Shown one piece after another: positions 1 through 14,651 of a stretch of 28,377 bases of DNA. The DNA is from a virus (Duplodnaviria; Heunggongvirae; Uroviricota; Caudoviricetes), in IMG/VR virus record IMGVR_UViG_2675903575_000014, positions 1 to 28,377 of that record; one strand, given 5' to 3'. Under the pieces are notes generated by a model. The model was not told the origin of the DNA. It saw only the letters and a list, made by a program, of their open reading frames with translations, and searched no databases. The position numbers and the translations under genes are program-made. The stretch's first letter is position 1. The number at the start of each line of letters is the position of its first letter.

Positions 1-1020
1 CTACTTACTGACCACAAGCGGCAAATCCAGTGTTGGTGTTATTTTGGTTTTACGATCGTAAATCAACACCTGATTTTCTGTTTTGTGTCCACTGAAAATT
101 TGTTTGTCGCGACTGCTGCCTTCGTAATCTGAAATCCCTTTGGCTTTTATGTCATGGAAGTTGCACCCAAACGGAACGCCGGCTTTTTGCTCGGCTGCAC
201 GTTTAGCCTGATTCCACCAGTTGTTCAGCGTCTTGGCTATTACCTTCCCGCCTTTGGTTGTGTTGATCACATACTCGCATGTGCCGGAAGATACATTTCG
301 GGCTAACTGGATCGCCGTACGTAATCGCGGAGACCATTCCTTGATTTGTTTAGTGCCGGTCTTGTTTTGCTCAATGTAAATCCCTTTCTCCATAATATCC
401 TGCCATTTCAGCTCGAGTACATCACCGAGCCTTGCCGCACAAAGATAGGATATCTCCATTGCAATACGTAACTGTGGAATTGCTTCCGCATATATTGCAG
501 CATACTGTTCATCGGTGATGTAAACAGTACGGGCTTTAAGTGTGAATTTTCTGACTCCTTTGCATGGATTATTTTTCACATACCCACGCTCATATCCCCA
601 TCCGTATACACGGCTCAGACTTGCCAGTTCATGGTTTGCTTGGGTCTTGCTCTCAAGTCCTCGCTTATCCATGAAAATTCTTACCTGTTCAATTTTTACA
701 TTATCAGCAAGCACTTTTCCGAATACTGCCAACAATGCCCTTTGATGTTGCCGATAATCTTTTTGGGTTCGGGGGGCCAGTTCTGTAAATGCAGGGGAGT
801 CCATAAACATGTGCCATAATTTAGCTACTGTCATTATGTTGTGGAGTTTTGCTTTTTCCAGCTCATAATTTTGCCAGACTTTAGCTACGCTGGTTTCCCG
901 CACTCTTCCGAGCCCTATAGTTCTTGTGCTTCCTTCGGGTTTCCATACGTAACTGTAACCATTCGATCTAACACGCGGTGGTAGTGCATTATCTTTTTTG
1001 TTTTTTCTTGGTCTTCCCAT
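1..1020 (-). CDS. int: Phage integrase, tyrosine recombinase family (339 aa, complete; stop at 1-3)
   Basis: Basic Arg/Lys-rich N-terminus MGRPRKNKKDN..., typical length and att-proximal position at the prophage end; 5' end overlaps the excisionase-like ORF as in lambda int/xis. Confidence 0.85.
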   Translation of the reverse strand: MGRPRKNKKDNALPPRVRSNGYSYVWKPEGSTRTIGLGRVRETSVAKVWQNYELEKAKLHNIMTVAKLWHMFMDSPAFTELAPRTQKDYRQHQRALLAVFGKVLADNVKIEQVRIFMDKRGLESKTQANHELASLSRVYGWGYERGYVKNNPCKGVRKFTLKARTVYITDEQYAAIYAEAIPQLRIAMEISYLCAARLGDVLELKWQDIMEKGIYIEQNKTGTKQIKEWSPRLRTAIQLARNVSSGTCEYVINTTKGGKVIAKTLNNWWNQAKRAAEQKAGVPFGCNFHDIKAKGISDYEGSSRDKQIFSGHKTENQVLIYDRKTKITPTLDLPLVVSK

Positions 1021-1240
1021 TGTTCAGCGCCTCAAAATCGGGTTCAGCGGAAACCAGTTCAGGTGCTTTTGGCATCGTAGTCAGTCCGTGTGGAATATCC
1101 CTGCGAAGAACTATTGGTTCGTTTTTAGGACCGATTACAAATGGGATACCGTGCAGCCTTAACTGGTGTTGCTGTTTTGTGTATCGCTCGTATTTCGTGA
1201 TCTCTTGAATCTCTGCTGGCGATAGAGTTAATTCGTACAT
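989..1240 (-). CDS. xis: Putative excisionase / small DNA-binding recombination directionality factor (83 aa)
   Basis: Small basic ORF directly upstream of int, overlapping it by 32 bp; lysine-rich C-terminus (GKTKKKQKR). Assignment is by position and size, not by recognised sequence. Confidence 0.5.
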   Translation of the reverse strand: MYELTLSPAEIQEITKYERYTKQQHQLRLHGIPFVIGPKNEPIVLRRDIPHGLTTMPKAPELVSAEPDFEALNNGKTKKKQKR

Positions 1241-1306: not shown

Positions 1307-3778
1307 TTAAAAATCAACCGGATTCGGGATCAGTTTTTGCCAGATTGCTGAAACGTATTTTGCCTGGTAACGGGCGTCATCAAGTGCATTATGGCGCTCA
1401 CCTTCGAATGGAATAGCCATTCTGGCATCGAAGTCTATGGCTTTCCCCAGCTCAACGATTGTGCGTACATCGCGATCGTTGTAGTAACGCCACGGGCAGG
1501 GGATCCCCTGCCGTTCGTATGAACGGCGCAAAATCGTGTTGTCGAAGTTGGCTCCATTTCCCCAGACCTGAACAAAAAATTCACCGGAGTTTTCGTCGAT
1601 AAATTCCCGCAATTGTAACAGTGCATCATCTAACGGGATTTCATCGGTCATAATGGCAGATTGCGCTTCGCGTGATTGCTTAAGCCACCATTTAATGGTG
1701 TCCCGATCAATGACTCCGCCAGCAGTTTCCAGATCGATAGTCTTACTAAATTCCGGTCCCATATCTCCGGTTTGCGGATCGAAAAATATTGCACCTATTG
1801 AGATAATCGGGGCATCAGGATTTTTTCCCATGGTTTCAAGGTCGATCATTAGATGGTCACACGTCCTGCTGGTGGATGTGATAACGTGATGACCGTTCAC
1901 CGTAATTAAGGGATCTGCCGTCTCGCCAGTTTCACTATCGCTGGCGTGATCCTGAGCGCTGCCAGCATTCTCTTTGTGTGGATGTTCAGCGCCTTCCATT
2001 TTCTCCGAATCGTCTTCCTGAACTTCAACCTGGTTCTTGTCATCGAATGTTTCCTGGTATGTTGCGTCGCCCATCACCGCACCACAATCAGGGCAGTTGC
2101 CGCCGCCGGTCTGACCGCAGGCGGTGCAGACTTTTTCCGCTTCCTGTTGCGCTACTGGCTCAGGTTGTTTCGTTTCTGGCTCGTTTTGTAACGCATTTGG
2201 GCTGTTTTGTTCCGCTTTCTGGTCGTTCTGTTCCGTTTCTTGCTGGTTCTGATTCACTGAATCGCGGGTTTCAATCCCCTTCACCCATTTCGGATCATTC
2301 GGGTCGCTAATCCCTGCAACAAATTCACCACGTGATACAGCAAGCAACTTATCGGCGTCAGGCTGGCTGATATTGGCTGCCTGCATAATTTTGTTTACTT
2401 CGTCAGCGGTAACTTTTACCGGCTCTGGTTGTGCGGTCGTGTCAGATGCACCAGTATTTTGTTGTGAACCTGAGTATGTACCGTTTTTACGGGCAAAATA
2501 TTCTTCTTTCGTGATTTCAGTAGCCCCTGCAGTCAGCGCCTTATTCAGACCAGAAAGTTTGTTTGCGCGACCATATTTTTCGCCATCCTTGTCGGTGAAG
2601 AGGAAGTAGAACGGCCCCTCACGCTCTACAGATGGTTCGACTTCCACTTTGCATTCGGTTTTTTCGTTGTCCGGAATTGCCGTTTCCACTGCATCAGTTT
2701 CTGGTACTGGCGACGAGAGAGTATCAGTTGCGCTCTGATTTCTTCCTTCATCTTCAAACACGCCCTTTGTAGTCAGGTATTCAGTAATGTATTTGTTCAG
2801 TGCCACAGGGTCTTTGTGAATGTCGATCGGACGTTCACGGACAAGGCCAAAAATAGTCTGGCGGTCGTAGCGAAGGGCATCAGGCTGTTTGCGCATTGAT
2901 GCCGAGATACGCTTCCAGTCTTCGCGGTCGTTGTCGATAACTTCATTTTTTGCCCAGCGATGGATGCTGCCGTCAATGTTTCCGGCATCCACATCACCAG
3001 GCCAGAGAGCGTAGGCCAGTTCGTCATCCAGTGTTTTCCATGTCTGCTTGTATTCGCGATGAGTGGCAGCAATGACCGGGCTGATTTTTCCTGTTGAATT
3101 GTCAGTGTACTGTTGATTGGCTCTGGCGCGGGCGAGATCAACAACAGACGTGTATTTTCCGGTTTCCTTGCGTTCACCTTCGCGACGTTTTTTCCAGATG
3201 CGCATCTCTGCCTGAATTTCGGGCCATTTAGCACCAGGAATACATTTATGCTTAACCCACCCAATGGCGTGCAACTTAAGCTCCGGATACATGGCGTTAA
3301 CTTCTGGCATTTTCATCAACGCTTCAACGATATGTCCGTCGAATGTTGCCATGTCTTCCTGCAACAATTCCTGTGCGCTAATAACCATATCAACGGTGAT
3401 GTTTTCACATGTGTCGAACTTAACCAGGACCGCGTTCTGTACTTCAGGGGACAGCTTGTCAAAATTGACGTTCATCGGATCGGATTCTGGTTCGACCGGA
3501 ATAAAGGAAGCGGATTCCTCATCCCAGCAGTTTTCCTGCATATATTCGGTATCCCAGGAGTCGATGGCAGGGCGGGGCATGCCGGGTTTATCCTCGCAAA
3601 CAAGAAATTTATAAGCGCAGTCCTGAGCAGCCGGATATTGCTCCAGGAATTGCCAGGTAAATTTGGCTCGGGCGCGGCGTTCGTCGCCGGCTTCAATGGC
3701 AGTGGCTACAGCGACTGCACCTTCTTCCTTTATTGCCTGTTCGTCCGGAATGGCGGCGCAAATAAAGACTTTACTCAT
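1307..3778 (-). CDS. Large exonuclease-family protein (823 aa) with a C-terminal DnaQ-like (DEDDh) 3'-5' exonuclease domain
   Basis: C-terminal ~180 aa carries DLETMG ... NGANFD ... HNALDDA motifs typical of DEDD exonucleases. The middle is acidic and low-complexity (Q/E/N-rich), with a CxxC-x8-CxxC zinc-ribbon-like motif (CTACGQTGGGNCPDCG). It occupies the lambda exo / Rac recE position. Confidence 0.7.
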   Translation of the reverse strand: MSKVFICAAIPDEQAIKEEGAVAVATAIEAGDERRARAKFTWQFLEQYPAAQDCAYKFLVCEDKPGMPRPAIDSWDTEYMQENCWDEESASFIPVEPESDPMNVNFDKLSPEVQNAVLVKFDTCENITVDMVISAQELLQEDMATFDGHIVEALMKMPEVNAMYPELKLHAIGWVKHKCIPGAKWPEIQAEMRIWKKRREGERKETGKYTSVVDLARARANQQYTDNSTGKISPVIAATHREYKQTWKTLDDELAYALWPGDVDAGNIDGSIHRWAKNEVIDNDREDWKRISASMRKQPDALRYDRQTIFGLVRERPIDIHKDPVALNKYITEYLTTKGVFEDEGRNQSATDTLSSPVPETDAVETAIPDNEKTECKVEVEPSVEREGPFYFLFTDKDGEKYGRANKLSGLNKALTAGATEITKEEYFARKNGTYSGSQQNTGASDTTAQPEPVKVTADEVNKIMQAANISQPDADKLLAVSRGEFVAGISDPNDPKWVKGIETRDSVNQNQQETEQNDQKAEQNSPNALQNEPETKQPEPVAQQEAEKVCTACGQTGGGNCPDCGAVMGDATYQETFDDKNQVEVQEDDSEKMEGAEHPHKENAGSAQDHASDSETGETADPLITVNGHHVITSTSRTCDHLMIDLETMGKNPDAPIISIGAIFFDPQTGDMGPEFSKTIDLETAGGVIDRDTIKWWLKQSREAQSAIMTDEIPLDDALLQLREFIDENSGEFFVQVWGNGANFDNTILRRSYERQGIPCPWRYYNDRDVRTIVELGKAIDFDARMAIPFEGERHNALDDARYQAKYVSAIWQKLIPNPVDF

Positions 3779-3858
3779 TTTGTTTTAACCTCATTACAGA
3801 TTTAAGGGTGAACAAATCCCTGCCATTGCTGGCATATAAAAATGAAACCGGATATTAA

Positions 3859-4068
3859 TTACGGTGCTGTTTTAAGTCCTGCCGGGATTTCGTTATTGTC
3901 CATGCGAATAACTTTATCAACCGGATAACAGTTGCCGGGAATTTTCTGTTCCGCTGCGGCAGCCATGCATTCTTTCATTGAGTCATGTATACCAATAACA
4001 AGATCGACTGGCTCGCCTGTATTAAGAAAAACCGTCAGAACGAGTGCAAATACTGTATTCATTGTCAT
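3859..4068 (-). CDS. Small hypothetical protein with hydrophobic N-terminus (69 aa, MTMNTVFALVLTVFLNTGE...)
   Basis: Its ATG overlaps the stop of the upstream gene in an ATGA arrangement (translational coupling); signal-peptide-like N-terminus. Confidence 0.45.
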   Translation of the reverse strand: MTMNTVFALVLTVFLNTGEPVDLVIGIHDSMKECMAAAAEQKIPGNCYPVDKVIRMDNNEIPAGLKTAP

Positions 4069-4247
4069 CGTCCTTTTTGCATCAGGCGTAAACGGGCCAG
4101 CATTGAAACAATGCATATTTGATTTAATAGCTCCCGTTCGTGTTTTCTCTTATTAATGGCATCTTCAGTAAATACAGGGTTACTGATTCTGACACCAATT
4201 TCAAAACAACCTTCAGACGTATTGACGTTTGGTAATAACGTTTCCAT
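4065..4247 (-). CDS. Small early-left protein (60 aa), possibly Kil-like host-division inhibitor
   Basis: GAGGA Shine-Dalgarno 7 nt upstream of the ATG at 4247. Size and position fit a kil-type gene; sequence similarity to lambda Kil is only a vague impression. Confidence 0.35.
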   Translation of the reverse strand: METLLPNVNTSEGCFEIGVRISNPVFTEDAINKRKHERELLNQICIVSMLARLRLMQKGR

Positions 4248-4430
4248 TATCGCATCCTCAACAATGAATTTTGTGATGCGGTGCCTGGTGCCTCCAGGTG
4301 ACGTTAACCAGTTAATAATTAACGCCGGATACAGAGAACCCACCCATAAGAACCAATACGGAAGTCAACTGGCCTTTTTAACTGTTCCGCGTGCGCTGAG
4401 CCGCATTCACCGCATCACAAAATTCACTTT

Positions 4431-4476
4431 AAAAAGGGCGGGTATCACAAGGGAAAACAAAAAACGGATACCCGCC
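4431..4476 (-). terminator. Putative intrinsic terminator / attenuator on the leftward transcript
   Basis: 10-bp perfect stem GGCGGGTATC / GATACCCGCC with a 20-nt loop, followed on the minus strand by a T-run (plus-strand AAAAAG at 4431-4436). Confidence 0.4.
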
Positions 4477-4719
4477 AAAAGGTAATCAACATGGGTTGTT
4501 GCAGCGGGGTTGTCACTTAAGCGTATGGTCAACCTGACAACCCGGTGCCACTAATGGGGTAAGGATAACCCCGCCATACTTACCGCCGCGCCATTTCGCG
4601 GATTGCCACAACCGGAAGTGCACGGTCGACGAAAATTTAACGACAGGCTATCTATGAACCAGCTACCTCGCCGTACGCTTTCGCGTTGTGTGCCTGCTTT
4701 TAACCACGTCAGGCGAGGT

Positions 4720-4758
4720 GGTTCCTGTTATTCCCCAACAACAAGAAATTTGTATAAT
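4720..4758 (+). promoter_or_regulatory. Putative promoter with extended -10 (TGTATAAT at 4751-4758)
   Basis: A TGnTATAAT element sits about 35 nt upstream of the GTG at 4793, with a purine-rich SD-like GAGAAGAG between them. Confidence 0.4.
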
Positions 4759-4792
4759 CCGGATATCCCCAACAACGAGAAGAGTACTCAAC

Positions 4793-5248
4793 GTGATAGC
4801 AGAACTGTCAGCGGCTATGGCTGCGATAAAGGAGACAGCTGGTCTCGCTAAGGTTATTAATGACGCAAAAACGGATGCAGAAGTTAAAGCCGCAACTATT
4901 GAACTTCAGAACAAACTAATCACGCTTCAGGCGGAATGCTTCTCTCTTTGCGATGCGATCCGCTTTCGTGATGAAGAGATAATGCATCTCAAAGCAAAAA
5001 TTGCAGAGACAGAAGATTTTCAGCGACAGGCGGAAGGTTACAAGCTTAACAAGCTTGATTCTGGAACCCTTGTATATTCCAAGAAGCAATTTATAGGCGA
5101 TACTGAGATAACTGTGTATCTTTGCCCACAATGTTTTGGAAAAAAGGTAATATCTGTACTTCAGCCAATGGAAATAATGCGCTTTGATGCTCATTTTCGT
5201 ACTTTTTGCCCCGCTTGCAATAATAAGTTCTGGATGAACTCAAGATAA
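4793..5248 (+). CDS. Hypothetical coiled-coil protein with C-terminal C4 zinc ribbon (about 151 aa from GTG 4793; alternative ATG at 4817)
   Basis: Plus-strand ORF inside the otherwise minus-strand early-left operon. N-terminal half is heptad-like and charged (AEVKAATIELQNKLITLQAE...); C-terminus has CPQC-x23-CPAC. The upstream 4688-4792 part of the track ORF is probably non-coding leader. Confidence 0.55.
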   Translation: MIAELSAAMAAIKETAGLAKVINDAKTDAEVKAATIELQNKLITLQAECFSLCDAIRFRDEEIMHLKAKIAETEDFQRQAEGYKLNKLDSGTLVYSKKQFIGDTEITVYLCPQCFGKKVISVLQPMEIMRFDAHFRTFCPACNNKFWMNSR

Positions 5249-5383
5249 TTAACCGTTTAAATAAGTTGGGACTATCCAGATTTTTAAAGAACGTACCGGA
5301 TGCTCACCCGTGTCCGGCGCACGCACTCCACCTGACCCGTGAAGAACTCCTTAATTACCAACCTTAGCTTCGTTGGTTAGCTA

Positions 5384-5602
5384 TTAACGCGGGTATGAAA
5401 TCATTCTGGCAATGCTTAATGCCGCTGCTTTTTCCAGCCTGGTGATATCCTGCTCCAGAGCGGACAGATTTTCAGCCTGCTTAGCCCTGGCTTCATTGGC
5501 CCATTTCAGATCCTGCGCTGCATTAATTTTCTGGCGCATCCACTCATAAAGTTCATCATCGGTATAGTCTGGCGCGATGATGACGGGTTCTCGTTTCTGC
5601 AT
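5384..5602 (-). CDS. Hypothetical small protein (72 aa)
   Basis: GAGGA SD 6 nt upstream of the ATG at 5602; charged helical composition; sits in the early-left operon. Confidence 0.5.
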   Translation of the reverse strand: MQKREPVIIAPDYTDDELYEWMRQKINAAQDLKWANEARAKQAENLSALEQDITRLEKAAALSIARMISYPR

Positions 5603-5631
5603 ACTGATTCCTCGCGGTGCTGCTTCGCTTA

Positions 5632-5760
5632 TCAGCCGTTAGATTTTGCCGAGCTGGAAAGCGCCTGTTTAAACTCACTGAAGCTGAGAGCTTCTTCGCC
5701 TTCGGCAAGGCCTTCGAAGTATTCTTCGTAAGCCTTTTCCATGATTGTGTCGAAATCCAT
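5632..5760 (-). CDS. Small acidic protein (42 aa; MDFDTIMEKAYEEYFEGLAEGEEALSFSEFKQ...)
   Basis: Found by manual translation (too short for the ORF track). Start is 2 nt after the stop of the upstream gene, with a GGTGAG SD-like sequence; 11 of 42 residues are acidic. Confidence 0.35.
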   Translation of the reverse strand: MDFDTIMEKAYEEYFEGLAEGEEALSFSEFKQALSSSAKSNG

Positions 5761-5761
5761 A

Positions 5762-5995
5762 TCACTCACCTGAGTTTCTTTCCAGCCAGCGACGCGCGCC
5801 AGATTCGGTTTTAAACGTTTTGCTTTTGGTATACGTCATCGCAGTGAACGTGCCGTCCTGGTTGGGGAACACGCCACATACCAGAGATTCGCTGTTGCCA
5901 AGATCGATAGTATCCATGCTGACCTCATTTCCCCTTAACGCCGGGGTGGCGGAACAAAAACCTGCTGCATAGTTAAAGTTGAACCCTGCCGTCAT
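5762..5995 (-). CDS. Hypothetical small protein (77 aa; alternative start at internal Met, plus coordinate 5917)
   Basis: First ORF downstream of the putative PL; GAGG SD before the ATG at 5995. Confidence 0.45.
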   Translation of the reverse strand: MTAGFNFNYAAGFCSATPALRGNEVSMDTIDLGNSESLVCGVFPNQDGTFTAMTYTKSKTFKTESGARRWLERNSGE

Positions 5996-6190: not shown

Positions 6191-6841
6191 CTATAGGCTG
6201 AACTGCACACCTTTTGCTACAGCAACAATTTTACATTCAGGTGTCAGTAAGGACGATTGATAGCGAGGATTGAGGGGGCTTAAATACACGAGTTTTCCGT
6301 CGATGACTAATTTTTTTATAGTCATAGATGGTTCGTTTGTAAGCGGATCTGGGACTATTACAGCGACGATACTACCATTTTTATATTTTTCTCTAGGCCT
6401 CATGATCACTGTGGCACCAACCGGAATGCTTGGCGACCCTGATGGGTTGTGCATAGTGTCATCAGGCATTGAAACGGCAAAATCCCCCTCCTTGACGTCA
6501 AAGAATGTGGTGATTCTGTCGGCATTTCCCATAGTTTTCTCTCCTTCTAAAATTAGGAAAGAAATTGCTTCCCCCCATGAAAGATAGGGGATTTGGGTGC
6601 CTGAATTGTTCTGCACAAGGGTAGGTTCAGTAGACGATACTCCATATAGGAGATAGGACTCAGTAGTTCCTAGTGCTTGGGCTAATTTACTAAGAGCTTT
6701 GCTACCGGGTTCGTTTAGGTCTTTCTCCCAGTACCCTATAGTTACCCCTGTTACGCCAGAAAGCTTGCCCAGTTCGACTTGGGTCAGTCCCTTGTCTTTT
6801 CTGAGTCTCTTAAGCCTAATGCCAAGGCTTTCCATCATCAT
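6191..6841 (-). CDS. cI: CI-type prophage repressor (HTH_XRE N-terminal domain plus LexA/S24-like autoprotease C-terminal domain)
   Basis: N-terminal LKRLRKDKGLTQVELGKLSGVTGVTIGYWE is a classic XRE helix-turn-helix. The C-terminal domain has a Ser in the AVSMPDDTM context and a Lys in TIKKLV, consistent with the S24 catalytic dyad. Three tandem ATGs; the third (6835) has the best SD spacing. Divergent from cro. Confidence 0.85.
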   Translation of the reverse strand: MMMESLGIRLKRLRKDKGLTQVELGKLSGVTGVTIGYWEKDLNEPGSKALSKLAQALGTTESYLLYGVSSTEPTLVQNNSGTQIPYLSWGEAISFLILEGEKTMGNADRITTFFDVKEGDFAVSMPDDTMHNPSGSPSIPVGATVIMRPREKYKNGSIVAVIVPDPLTNEPSMTIKKLVIDGKLVYLSPLNPRYQSSLLTPECKIVAVAKGVQFSL

Positions 6842-10993: not shown

Positions 10994-12874
10994 TTATCGC
11001 CCAGCAGATTTAGCAAGAATAGTCTCGAGCATTTCTGGTACGTTGCCTTTAGCATTGATAGTTGCTGTTCGGTAAGCTAGTTGATTTTTTGAGAGATTGA
11101 TTCCTGTAAGTGCTTCAATTTCGTTGCAGGCCTTACCCCATTCTACCCAGTTTTCAGACAAAAAAGATTCAAGATGATCCGCAAATATAGCAATATCATT
11201 AGTAACTGTTGCAGCTGGAAAATCCTCTTCGGGCATACCAAAGTATCTAAGCAGACTTCGATTCTCCATTGCGTGATTATTCCGCTCGGCATCGATAGCT
11301 CCCTGCATTTTATTTTTCGCTTTGGCACGAGCTTCAAAACCCGCATCTGCATCGAAAAGCGCGAAAACAGGAACGCCAATTGTACTTAGAATCGCATGGG
11401 CAAGTGGGATTGATGTCTTTGAACCTACAGGAACAATAGAGATGCCAGCGGCTTCAAGCGAGCCGTGTGACTTCCTGTCGCCAATTCCATAAAACACCGA
11501 TAATTCTGTTGTCCCTTCTACCAGAAAAGCTCTTTGGGCAAAGAGAGCTATTGAAAGCTGATCAGCTACATTATGGCCAAGCCTTCTATCAACTACTTCG
11601 GCATTAACAATTCCTTTTAATTTATCTTTGACATCTTCGATGGTTGCAAAGTGAACAGAAACAACGGGGTTTGCATCAGATGTTCGTGTCAATCGTCTAA
11701 TCTGGTTGAAATGGCGAGCTTCAAGAAAGTATGGGCTGTGAGTCGCATATGTTATCTGTATGCGCTTATCCGCATCTTCGGCGAGTTCTCTGAGTACTTT
11801 TGCAAATGCTTGTGCTTGGATCGGATGCTGAAATAATTCTGGTTCTTCGATCGCAAGGCAAATAACACCTTCGGTAGAGGCTGCACCAGACTGAGCTAAT
11901 AATTGGAGAGCAGAGATCAGTATCGTGCGTTGAAAGCCGTGCCCTTGCCTTTCGACTGCTGTTTCGGTTGTGCCATCAAGCACAGAAACTTCGAATGTGG
12001 TCTTGGGGGCCTTCAGTTCGATATTTGCAGGGGTAACTGTAACAGCACGACCGGGGGAGTAAGTCGTAACTACGGCGTTCAACTGCGCCGTCATATCCGC
12101 AAGTTGGGTTTCGAATTTTTCTTTGTAGACTTTCTGCTGCTGGACTCGGGATTCTTCAACAATCTTTGCAATTTCCTCATCTGCGGCGGTGCGATCAATC
12201 GAACGTTCAAGAATTCGACCAATAATACTCGCCTTGCCATCGAGAGACTCTTCACTGGCACGAAGATCTGCTGTTACCAAAACGTAATCAAAGAGACCGC
12301 TCATCTTGCCGCCACTGTTGAAACCGAAAAAGTTGGTTTGTAGGGATTCAAGTGCCTCATGTAGTAATTCTGTATGTGATGCTTCCCATGCAGTCATTGC
12401 TTCTTCGACAGCAAGCCCGGTCTTGGCAACGGGAAGATTGAATTCAGGATGTGCTTCTCGAAGAGCGTTGTACAAATCCTTCTTCGCTGTTGCTCCATTA
12501 GCAGCTTTAATATCGTTAAAATAAGGGAAACTTTTTGCGTTGGCAGAAAGCCTTTCTGAACCGTCGGGCGCGCGTAGCCTCCAGGCAGTGAATGTTGCTG
12601 CTCCCTGCGGAGCGTATTTGCCAAGTGCTTCACGATCTCTCTCAGTGAGGTTTGAGAAGGTAACCTGTACCTCAATATCTTTATCAATAGTTCCAAATGA
12701 GCAATCTTTTTCATTTAACATCCCGACCTTACCGTTGAAGAACCAATCAAGTGCTCGGAGAACAGTAGATTTACCTGCCCCATTCGGGCCAATGAACGTT
12801 GTAACGGAATCGAAGGGAATATTTATATCTGTCAAAGTACGAAAGTTTTTTATCCTAACGGAATGAATTTTCAT
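10994..12874 (-). CDS. OLD-family ATP-dependent nuclease (N-terminal ABC-type ATPase plus C-terminal Toprim; 626 aa); class 1 OLD or fused PARIS AriA-AriB-like
   Basis: Walker A GPNGAGKST (residues 30-38); Walker B-like VICLAIEEPELFQHP; H-loop-like YATHSPYF; C-terminal Toprim-like FLVEGTTE, VPVGSKTS and FALFDADAG. No adjacent UvrD-like helicase gene. AT-rich relative to flanking phage genes. Confidence 0.8.
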   Translation of the reverse strand: MKIHSVRIKNFRTLTDINIPFDSVTTFIGPNGAGKSTVLRALDWFFNGKVGMLNEKDCSFGTIDKDIEVQVTFSNLTERDREALGKYAPQGAATFTAWRLRAPDGSERLSANAKSFPYFNDIKAANGATAKKDLYNALREAHPEFNLPVAKTGLAVEEAMTAWEASHTELLHEALESLQTNFFGFNSGGKMSGLFDYVLVTADLRASEESLDGKASIIGRILERSIDRTAADEEIAKIVEESRVQQQKVYKEKFETQLADMTAQLNAVVTTYSPGRAVTVTPANIELKAPKTTFEVSVLDGTTETAVERQGHGFQRTILISALQLLAQSGAASTEGVICLAIEEPELFQHPIQAQAFAKVLRELAEDADKRIQITYATHSPYFLEARHFNQIRRLTRTSDANPVVSVHFATIEDVKDKLKGIVNAEVVDRRLGHNVADQLSIALFAQRAFLVEGTTELSVFYGIGDRKSHGSLEAAGISIVPVGSKTSIPLAHAILSTIGVPVFALFDADAGFEARAKAKNKMQGAIDAERNNHAMENRSLLRYFGMPEEDFPAATVTNDIAIFADHLESFLSENWVEWGKACNEIEALTGINLSKNQLAYRTATINAKGNVPEMLETILAKSAGR

Positions 12875-13385: not shown

Positions 13386-13469
13386 TTTTATATTGGCGAG
13401 GTGACGTGAGTTAAGTAGAATTGCTGCGGGTGCTTGAGGCTATCTGTCTCAGGCATGAACACCAAAGGC

Positions 13470-13560
13470 AGATAGAGAAAAGCCCCAGTTAACATTACGC
13501 GTCCTGCAAGACGCTTAACATTAATCTGAGGCTCAATCTATGAACGGCAAATCTAGGTTA
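13470..13560 (-). ncRNA. Predicted Sok-like antisense RNA of the hok locus (position approximate)
   Basis: Inferred from hok/sok family architecture. The leader (gcttgaggctatctgtctcagg ... ggcagatagagaaaagcccc) resembles, from my memory of R1, the hok mRNA 5' region. No explicit promoter was mapped. Confidence 0.25.
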
Positions 13561-13596
13561 GCCTCTTACGTGCCGAAAGGCAAGGAGAAGCAGGCT

Positions 13597-13752
13597 ATGA
13601 AGCAGCAAAAGGCGATGTTAATCGCCCTGATCGTCATCTGTTTAACCGTCATTGTGACGGCACTGGTAACGAGGAAAGACCTCTGCGAGGTACGAATCCG
13701 AACCGGCCAGACGGAGGTCGCTGTCTTCACAGCTTACGAACCTGAGGAGTAA
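13597..13752 (+). CDS. hok: Hok/Gef-family type I toxin (51 aa; MKQQKAMLIALIVICLTVIVTALVTRKDLCEVRIRTGQTEVAVFTAYEPEE)
   Basis: Single transmembrane helix followed by the conserved Cys-containing periplasmic tail typical of Hok/Gef; I recall this as matching E. coli HokD/RelF, unverified. An in-frame upstream ATG at 13540 gives a 70-aa mok-like extension. Confidence 0.85.
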   Translation: MKQQKAMLIALIVICLTVIVTALVTRKDLCEVRIRTGQTEVAVFTAYEPEE

Positions 13753-14147: not shown

Positions 14148-14165
14148 TGATGGGTATTGTGCTCT

Positions 14166-14651
14166 ATGGCTGAGATTGTTGAAGGAGTGCATTACCTTAC
14201 GGTTGATGATCTTGTTGAAATCAATCGTTCCCTAATTGAATTACAGACGCCAGATGAGCCCGTTGGTGTTCTGAGTCCAGATAACTTAAGTTCTTCTCAG
14301 GCCCGTCCCAGCATGGTTCGATGGTATGAACAGACTAATGACATGTTTGTACTGGCATCGGTATTGATTGAAAGTCTGATTCAGAATCATCCGTTTGCTA
14401 ATGCGAACAAACGAACAGCTATGATGGCTGGTTACGTCTTCTTGTTGTTGAATGGCTATGAGTTAACAGCACCAGGCGATGAAATCGTGGAAATGGCAGA
14501 GGGACTGGCCTGCAAAACCTATACTCGAGAAGATCTCGAGAACTGGTTGTGTTATTGGTCTCGCGCGTATGACAGCCGGGAATTATGTAAAACAGGCGCA
14601 ACTATTGTTTTGTATGAAACTATCAAGCTTAGAATAGAACAGCAAAACTAA
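14166..14651 (+). CDS. doc: Doc-family toxin (Fic/Doc fold, 161 aa)
   Basis: HPFANANKRTA matches the Doc signature H-x-F-x-(D/N)-(A/G)-N-K-R (P1 Doc has HIFNDANKRTA). Size is appropriate and it is followed by a terminator. Confidence 0.8.
   Translation: MAEIVEGVHYLTVDDLVEINRSLIELQTPDEPVGVLSPDNLSSSQARPSMVRWYEQTNDMFVLASVLIESLIQNHPFANANKRTAMMAGYVFLLLNGYELTAPGDEIVEMAEGLACKTYTREDLENWLCYWSRAYDSRELCKTGATIVLYETIKLRIEQQN

Follow-up and report, generated by a model that had tools for sequence, protein, structure and literature searches.

We analysed a 28,377-nucleotide stretch of DNA (IMG/VR virus record IMGVR_UViG_2675903575_000014, positions 1 to 28,377), referred to here as the window, which forms the left part of a lambdoid prophage. 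The gene of interest is a large minus-strand open reading frame (ORF) lying in a leftward series that runs from cI through ydfA, ydfB, ydfC, dicB and ydfD to this ydfE-type gene and then to xis and int (Table 1). Comparison with RecE shows that the 823-residue product is a RecE-family protein in which a predicted exonuclease domain of the DEDDh type occupies the place of the RecE nuclease and after which no recT follows. The gene order is that of the K-12 Qin prophage (dicA-ydfA-ydfB-ydfC-dicF-dicB-ydfD-ydfE-intQ), the DNA is 90-96% identical to Qin over positions 3012-4701 and 5293-5955, and over residues 1-256 the protein shares 93% identity with what remains of ydfE in K-12. On the strength of this identity and the shared gene order we take the gene to be the intact form of ydfE, and there is little doubt in our minds about this assignment or about the evolutionary origin of the protein as a RecE-family mosaic. 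The best overall explanation that we can offer, to which we give a probability of about one half, is that the gene encodes a repressor-controlled 3'-5' DNA end-trimming enzyme that would work with the host RecBCD and RecA.

Prophages in RefSeq that are 99-100% identical have the same gene order and lie beside yccA, and the layout recurs in phages mEp460 and Tritos. Most of the best 80 IMG/VR loci (at least 93% identical) end 1.3-2.0 kb past the gene, which leaves room for little beyond xis and int. The CI-like repressor presumably controls the leftward operon. A crude consensus scan of the minus strand between cI and the gene revealed no sigma-70-like promoter, and the simplest reading makes the ydfE-type gene the final cargo gene in a repressor-controlled leftward early operon. 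The protein matches PHROG 2082 over its full length (1-823 of 823), and RefSeq E. coli genomes hold 100% identical copies that are named 'exonuclease' or, by the Prokaryotic Genome Annotation Pipeline (PGAP), '3'-5' exoribonuclease domain-containing protein'.

Table 1. Features of the window. Nucleotide positions are those of the window and residue numbers those of the 823-residue protein; dN/dS is the ratio of nonsynonymous to synonymous substitution rates and pLDDT the predicted local distance difference test score of the AlphaFold2 (AF2) model.
Feature	Residues	Position	Strand	Basis	dN/dS
Intact ydfE-type gene, whole ORF	1-823	1307..3778	-	ATG start, ORF list	0.22
First folded N-terminal domain, alpha/beta, YdfE_N type	1-205	3164..3778	-	AF2 pLDDT ~90	0.12
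Helical domain, YdfE_C type, common to RecE ~278-340	245-340	2759..3046	-	AF2 pLDDT ~90	0.14
Small beta-beta-alpha-beta-alpha domain (GPFYF...GRANKL...EI..EEY)	388-432	2483..2617	-	AF2 pLDDT ~85	0.08
Segment after the small domain	433-545				0.18
RecE-type linker region, matches RecE 454-592	471-626	1901..2368	-	BLASTP, NF007259, segment BLAST	
Zinc-ribbon motif CxxC-x7-CxxC (C551, C554, C562, C565)	551-565	2084..2128	-	Cys positions	0.20
Acidic low-complexity linker	571-640	1859..2068	-	Composition; almost neutral evolution	0.78
Predicted disordered loops and acidic linker, range					0.56-1.4
Predicted DEDDh 3'-5' exonuclease domain, T4 DexA subfamily	642-813	1340..1855	-	PF16473; DexA alignment	0.19
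Integrase, after the excisionase		1-1020	-	RefSeq annotation	
Excisionase (DUF4224 type), immediately downstream of the ydfE-type gene		989..1240	-	PHROG 1266, Pfam DUF4224, RefSeq annotation	
YdfD/DUF1482		3859-4116	-	PHROG/Pfam	
DicB		4065-4343	-	PHROG/Pfam	
Diverged sequence at the DicF position		~4430-4490	-	Comparison with Qin and Tritos	
186-residue ORF, antisense		4688-5248	+	PHROG 1244	
YdfC-like		5384-5602	-	PHROG/Pfam	
YdfB-like		5632-5769	-	PHROG/Pfam	
YdfA/DUF1391		5762-5995	-	PHROG/Pfam	
CI-like LexA-family repressor (helix-turn-helix and S24 peptidase)		6191..6841	-	Pfam HTH_3 and Peptidase_S24	
626-residue ORF		10994-12874	-	PHROG 4747	
sok antitoxin RNA		13428-13602	+	Rfam RF01794, 110 bits	
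Doc-like toxin ORF, near sok		14157-14651	+	PHROG 577	
Chi GCTGGTGG, top strand		1868 (1868..1875), 7418, 7463, 13158, 15088, 18496	+		
Chi GCTGGTGG, bottom strand		15678, 15730, 21643	-		

An earlier annotation made from the letters alone (the sequence-only reading) had described an 823-residue ORF at this position with an acidic low-complexity linker and a zinc ribbon. The ORF is confirmed, and the linker is real by composition, Asp and Glu making up 30% of residues 561-600 and Gln, Asn, Ser, Thr, Pro and Gly together 33-53% of the blocks in 521-640. The ribbon stands at the level of a motif of four cysteines, with a weak Pfam match to DZR (E = 0.12); the same motif is kept in RecE of the Rac prophage. 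The sequence-only reading had left the N-terminal 600 or so residues unassigned, which is outdated. Residues 1-345 correspond to the Pfam families YdfE_N (PF27430) and YdfE_C (PF27432), models that are newer than the Pfam release scanned and that were assigned through the precomputed Pfam column of homologues. Most homologues with 74-96% identity carry both accessions, and N-terminally truncated fragments carry PF27432 only. The homology of residues 262-626 to RecE, described below, also refutes the earlier statement.

The AlphaFold2 model covers residues 1-470, was built on 34 sequences and contains three confident folded units, with disordered stretches at residues 223-237, 345-384 and 438-470 between or after them. 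The helical segment 245-340 recurs in fusions to DEDDh, RecE-type nuclease and Rad52-like domains, as indicated by segment BLAST. The small domain at 388-432 is the most strongly conserved of the N-terminal elements, with many invariant columns in the 34-sequence alignment; it is not present in K-12 RecE, where the BLASTP alignment has a gap. Two shorter natural variants from E. coli, P0010 (527 residues) and P0101 (392 residues), join a YdfE-type N-terminus to a DEDDh domain. Neither is long enough for the complete RecE-like linker, so the linker and the zinc ribbon would be dispensable in some carriers. Moreover, the ribbon was found in none of 64 distant DEDDh fusions and none of 120 Rad52-like fusions, and it was therefore regarded as optional and outside the conserved core; it was rejected as a defining feature of the family.

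The C-terminal domain (residues 642-813) matches Pfam PF16473, 'Rv2179c-like', with E = 2.3e-67 and 226.6 bits against a cut-off of 27, over positions 2-177 of a 177-position model; RNase_T (PF00929) also matches (E = 3.6e-4). The DLET motif starts at residue 646, NGANFD at 741 and HNALDDA at 796, and all five catalytic residues are present: D646 and E648 (IDLET), D746 (NFD), and H796 and D801 (HNALDD). When the protein is aligned with T4 DexA and with three standalone homologues from phages, these residues fall opposite DexA D7, the Glu of the DFET motif, D119, H186 and D191. The D-x-E of Exo I, the Asp of Exo II and the H-x4-D of Exo III that characterize the DEDDh superfamily are thus all in place. 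The annotation by hidden Markov model that the sequence-only reading had suggested therefore upholds its view of a DnaQ-like nuclease that is not of the lambda Exo or RecE type.

A family profile built from 16 members with DexA left out matched T4 DexA (PDB entry 8kel) over residues 2-196 with E = 1.3e-20. The next matches were DnaQ (9e-5) and oligoribonucleases (about 0.02), and the search returned no other exoribonuclease and no Rv2179c chain at E <= 1. DNA is favoured as the substrate by this homology, since the profile places the domain near DexA and far ahead of the RNases. We consider that the domain is probably a metal-dependent 3'->5' exonuclease that would act on DNA 3' ends. Standalone DEDDh homologues of 184-200 residues occur in temperate E. 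coli phages. One of these, in the P2-like phage 899 (L005 3498-4049; 45% identical), lies after replication gene A and near the portal gene. Another is gp34 of phage LLS, a Chi-rich phage that has no Rec module and that RecBCD helps to grow.

The middle of the protein is shared with RecE. In BLASTP residues 262-626 align with K-12 RecE 278-592 (E = 3e-60), and the NCBIfam RecE equivalog NF007259 aligns over residues 238-626 (model positions 261-603 of 877) with 279.8 bits, below its cut-off of 1269. The resemblance to RecE is close from residue 474 onwards, a part that takes in the zinc ribbon and the acidic tail, and it ends ahead of the nuclease domain of RecE. According to a review (PMC11611040) that domain comprises residues 564-866, and the function of the N-terminal domain of RecE is not known. 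No similarity to RecE 593-866 was found in the protein or elsewhere in the window.

A full-length search of 1.84 billion representative proteins, followed by segment BLAST, shows that these modules occur in several combinations. In P0123 (805 residues) RecE 1-453 (92-99.6% identical) is followed by the linker and a DEDDh domain (96% identical). Six further proteins (P0133, P0134, P0135, P0143, P0146 and P0160) join a RecE-type first domain, matching K-12 RecE 1-260, to a DEDDh domain; in the related P0152 and P0196 this first region is Pfam PF06630. The reverse combination, YdfE-type N-terminal parts with a RecE-type PD-(D/E)XK nuclease (PF12684), is found in P0161 and P0140. A further, large group, annotated as 'exodeoxyribonuclease VIII' in Klebsiella, Salmonella, Enterobacter and Citrobacter (730-800 residues), has a YdfE-type N-terminus and a 270-residue C-terminus without a Pfam match. 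The closest structural matches of this C-terminus are human RAD52 (8tkq, score 10.2, 143 residues aligned; 5jrb, 9.9), yeast Mgm101 (9yi6, 9.7) and Sak of phage 80alpha (8qe9, 8.2), and it has the Rad52 annealase fold. The gene for such a fusion is flanked in a Klebsiella prophage by a Gam-like gene and a Sipho_Gp157 gene, and has xis and int downstream.

The exchange of C-termini is accompanied by a change in the neighbouring gene. We called ORFs in 115 distant IMG/VR loci and classified them with phmmer, which gave 113 loci with either a RecE-nuclease (49) or a DEDDh (64) C-terminus. A RecT-family gene lies directly downstream in 47 of the 49 RecE-nuclease loci; in 45 it is an ORF of about 370 residues (PF03837, E = 2.4e-31; 6 bp past the stop codon in the representative locus) and in two it is a K-12-like RecT. 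Of the 64 DEDDh loci, 58 have an excisionase (PF07825 or DUF4224) as the following ORF, mostly with an integrase after it, and an annealase was found in none of the 64. Across the 113 loci the RecE nuclease domain and recT are thus present or absent together, as a unit, and the type of nuclease predicts the presence of recT almost perfectly. Given 0 of 64 against 47 of 49, the lack of a partner annealase is a property of the whole DEDDh branch.

At the locus itself PHROG and Pfam scans detected no annealase, either among the plausible ORFs that separate the gene from cI or among ten larger ORFs on the right-hand side. None of the YdfD, DicB, YdfC-, YdfB- and YdfA-like genes is an annealase, a single-stranded DNA-binding protein (SSB) or Gam by the same scans. 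Searches by tblastn with K-12 RecT, lambda Bet, P22 Erf and a Rad52-like domain, for which the positive controls worked, returned no match at E <= 1e-3, either in the window or among 83 related loci, of which 80 total 0.9 Mb; nor did lambda Exo, lambda Gam and the RecE nuclease at the same threshold. No annealase is annotated in RefSeq in the near-identical prophages, and annealases of the Sak4 and gp2.5 types, which were looked for by PHROG scans only, were not found. The sequence-only reading had held that no Bet/RecT/Erf-like gene accompanies the exonuclease. The scans, the tblastn searches and the distant loci bear this out, both here and across the family, and a search for a small annealase ORF that might have been missed found none. 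The protein sits in the recombination slot and its N-terminal parts are common with RecE; yet a two-component recombinase would have an adjacent annealase, which is lacking, and the nuclease here is of the DEDDh type, with a 3'-5' polarity predicted by homology.

The window contains nine Chi octamers (GCTGGTGG), where 1.02 +/- 1.0 are expected; none of 100 shuffles reached nine. Six of these are on the top strand, a count which ranks first among 168 permutations of the octamer. The top strand is the rightward strand of the lambda-type map, opposite to the ydfE-type gene, and this is the active orientation of Chi in the account of Zheng et al. (Genome Res 2025, PMC12315714). The exonuclease gene contains one of the nine and the cII-like gene two. 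The density in the window is one per 3.2 kb, compared with the figure of one per 4.6 kb given there for E. coli K-12. In what their main text reports of 314 lambdoid phages, those without a recombination system of their own form concatemers by means of Chi and the host RecBCD, and a 'Tritos' type of four phages encodes a nuclease, lacks genes for an annealase, SSB and anti-RecBCD protein, and carries 7-21 top-strand Chi. The same text describes 'RecE-2' proteins, which are without a nuclease domain and whose roles are given as unknown.

The gene is by no means peculiar to this prophage. Megablast detected it in 4788 of 5426 complete E. coli genomes, with at least 80% of the gene covered in 3532 (about 65%) and a median of two places per genome. 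It has its own PHROG family and belongs to the published Tritos-type class, and it is found at full length in 17 phage records, among them mEp460, Evi, Tritos, HannyBb and a number of prophages associated with Stx2a phages. Nei-Gojobori dN/dS values were calculated from 74 distinct full-length alleles of 823 codons; recombination among alleles may distort the absolute values listed in Table 1. All of the folded modules are maintained by selection.

The mechanism that we propose has several steps. The protein would be made on induction or infection and be silent in the lysogen. Its DEDDh domain would trim 3' single-stranded tails on linear phage DNA, and the trimmed ends would be open to loading of the host RecBCD. 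The N-terminal scaffold presumably brings the nuclease to the same partner or substrate as in RecE, and the trimming may in this way feed or tune RecBCD-Chi-RecA recombination. The phage would rely on that pathway because it has no annealase and no RecBCD inhibitor and is enriched in Chi. We put forward the end-trimming role within a RecBCD- and Chi-dependent lifestyle tentatively.

A number of points weigh against this interpretation. The end-blunting step is drawn from general knowledge of how RecBCD loads. Both the 3'-5' polarity and the preference for DNA are predicted from homology, and the Pfam family is itself named after an exoribonuclease (Rv2179c), a label that PGAP sometimes transfers to the protein. 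A fold search with the N-terminal domains gave no informative match and no annealase-like fold, which offers little help to the idea of targeting. The Chi figures are for the window, which is a part of the prophage, and right-end clustering and whole-genome statistics fall outside their scope. DnaQ-like exonucleases usually inhibit recombination, according to the main text of Zheng et al. (PMC12315714). Finally, Kang et al. (NAR 2025, PMC12153337) report that EcD, an E. coli homologue of DexA, degrades T4 DNA in vitro and protects cells from T4 even at leaky expression.

This last observation leads to the main alternative, in which the DEDDh domain would act selectively on superinfecting phages whose DNA has modified cytosines and break that DNA down (the HREX idea of Kang et al.), or would more generally attack the nucleic acid ends of competitors, and the gene is kept for the benefit of the host. 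In favour of this, the gene is intact in the majority of E. coli genomes. The standalone homologue in the P2-like phage lies beside a slot near the portal gene that often holds accessory or defence cargo. Table S3 of Kang et al. lists an exodeoxyribonuclease of phage Evi (VUF53858.1) at the position of our hit H17, which has 91% DNA identity over the full length. Of the residues proposed for recognition in DexA, D169, assigned to 5-hydroxymethylcytosine, aligns with D782; the proposed Trp (W152) corresponds to Tyr766, which is aromatic but not Trp, in an alignment at 25-28% identity. D90, the tetramer-forming Asp of DexA, is retained as D718 in both the HMMER and the MAFFT alignments, although a shift of one residue would place A719 there; EcD is said to owe its selectivity to the loss of this Asp, which gives a dimer-only enzyme. 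The partial agreement at these positions weakens the alternative. EcD belongs to the same DexA-like family, and its cloned start (MIDTET...) falls where the DEDDh domain begins in the present protein. The termini differ, however, the primers giving MIDTET... and ...TIPETYD, unlike the C-terminus here, and in contrast to EcD the ydfE-type gene is under phage repressor control. As it lies at the end of a repressor-controlled operon with no promoter-like site of its own found, it should be silent in a lysogen. Its N-terminal modules are common with recombination proteins (RecE and the Rad52-like fusions) and not with known defence proteins. PADLOC gave just a weak generic DEDDh match (E = 1e-5), and on that basis we rejected filing the gene as a known defence system. 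We consider a defence or exclusion role unlikely. None of the three standalone E. coli phage homologues that we translated is EcD, and the exact 23-mer from the EcD reverse primer has no match in IMG/VR.

An exonuclease acting on RNA, like Rv2179c or the ISG20-type 'TONDO' proteins of prophages, is a less probable explanation still; it would trim the 3' ends of operon transcripts, small RNAs (sRNAs) or RNA-phage genomes. The names of the Pfam family and of some PGAP-annotated copies point this way, a DicF-like sRNA region lies in the same operon, and a 2026 preprint describes defence against MS2 and Qbeta by DEDDh exonucleases of prophages that bear auxiliary domains. The DexA-free profile, on the other hand, ranks T4 DexA far above the oligoribonucleases and finds no Rv2179c chain. 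The TONDO set comes from another DEDDh clade (cd06127) and has proteins of fewer than 500 residues, and the DEDDh domain here stands in for a DNA exonuclease in a DNA-recombination slot.

The model implicit in the sequence-only reading was a one-protein, RecA-independent recombinase in which the N-terminal 600 or so residues supply annealing. The slot is indeed that of recET in Rac and of exo-bet-gam in lambda, purifying selection acts on the N-terminal modules, and fusion of the same N-terminus to a Rad52-fold annealase in relatives links the scaffold to recombination. In those relatives, however, the annealase replaces the nuclease at the C-terminus, which argues that the shared N-terminus is not itself an annealase. 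The annealases of the Red and RecET systems use 3' tails, which 3'-5' digestion removes. The homologous N-terminal region of RecE is, moreover, dispensable for RecET recombination (review PMC11611040). That the recombination module consists of a single protein was assumed in that reading rather than shown, and the exonuclease-plus-annealase mechanism cannot operate with a 3'-5' exonuclease and no annealase. We regard this model as very improbable; most likely the ydfE-type protein is not a self-sufficient exonuclease-plus-annealase recombinase. The least credible alternative is a decaying remnant, in which an illegitimate fusion would have disrupted a RecE gene that defective prophages now carry along as a passenger. 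It could appeal to the K-12 pseudogenes (ydfE being cut by IS2), to the many truncated fragments in databases and to the short variants without the linker. It was rejected because every folded module has a dN/dS of 0.08-0.20 and the catalytic residues are intact, and it is further opposed by the occurrence of the gene in plaque-forming phages and by the recurrence of DEDDh fusions on divergent N-terminal types in 64 distant loci.

We note several other features of the window. An Rfam scan found only sok, and no DicF even at a relaxed threshold (E <= 1); no tRNAs were found. The sequence at the position of the DicF sRNA of Qin and Tritos is diverged here, the flanks, terminator stem and T-run being kept and the centre being different, and it is either a degraded DicF or a DicF variant whose targets differ. 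The 186-residue ORF has paired CxxC motifs at its C-terminus and lies antisense between the YdfC-like gene and DicB, in a stretch of about 590 bp (~4701-5293) that has no counterpart in K-12 Qin. The 626-residue ORF, which runs on the opposite strand, has the replication genes on one side and the nin-like region on the other; its first 50 or so residues resemble the P-loop of SbcC/ABC-type ATPases, and it has the look of a cargo insertion that may be a defence gene. The sok RNA implies a hok/sok module.

The gene described here is already known in the sense that it is annotated in thousands of genomes and has its own PHROG and Pfam families, and the phage class was described in 2025. The absence of an annealase and the presence of DnaQ-like nucleases in the recombination slot are likewise in the literature. 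Literature searches on Rv2179c and phage, and on YdfE, did not find a functional study. What is added here is an explicit domain map, the DEDDh domain standing in for the unit of RecE nuclease and recT, and the Rad52 fold in the nuclease-less relatives. One practical consequence is that 'exodeoxyribonuclease VIII' is a misleading name for two large groups, those of the DEDDh type and those of the Rad52-like type. The family also amounts to a natural experiment in which one N-terminal scaffold is combined with a 5'-3' nuclease and recT, with a predicted 3'-5' nuclease alone, or with a Rad52-fold annealase. The comparison thereby offers a route to the role of the large N-terminal region of RecE and to how lambdoid phages that are rich in Chi and encode no recombinase exploit the recombination of the host. 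It is conceivable, though rather doubtful, that the N-terminal YdfE/RecE region is a general adaptor that brings interchangeable DNA-end enzymes to one common host or phage partner. If this were so, the DEDDh version would be the core of an unrecognised, annealase-free way of steering host RecBCD/Chi recombination, and the 600 or so N-terminal residues of RecE would gain a function that could be approached experimentally through the three cargo variants.

Among known systems RecE (exodeoxyribonuclease VIII) of Rac occupies the same operon slot and has the same non-nuclease middle region with zinc ribbon and acidic linker. The two proteins differ at both ends. Over the first 260 residues the domain is YdfE_N here and Exonuc_VIII (PF06630) in RecE, and RecE ends in a PD-(D/E)XK 5'-3' double-stranded DNA exonuclease and has recT as the next gene, both of which the ydfE-type gene lacks. 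YdfE of the K-12 Qin prophage (pseudogene b1577) is cut by IS2 after residue 256 and has lost the linker and the exonuclease, whereas the copy in the window is intact. The nearest solved relative of the C-terminal domain is T4 DexA (exonuclease A; 8KEL/8KEN), with 28% identity in tblastn. The loops specific to DexA are not present in the domain here. DexA and the standalone phage homologues (LLS gp34, PhiR46_1 and that of phage 899) are single-domain proteins of 184-227 residues, unlike the present domain, which is the C-terminus of a protein of 823. T4 is a lytic phage that degrades the host DNA, in contrast to the temperate lambdoid prophage that carries the 823-residue protein. LLS gp34 (L007 5007-5579) is 56-58% identical (tblastn, MAFFT) and lies directly upstream of xis and int, as does the gene here. 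The closest overall counterpart is phage Tritos, which has a full-length copy with 92% DNA identity in the same dicB-ydfD-gene-xis-int layout. The main text of Zheng et al. (PMC12315714) makes no mention of the mosaic of RecE scaffold and DexA-type domain, of the coupled loss of recT or of a role for the nuclease. As in the Tritos type described there, the window combines a nuclease with an early left operon that has no annealase, SSB or anti-RecBCD gene, and with many Chi sites that are mostly in the active orientation.

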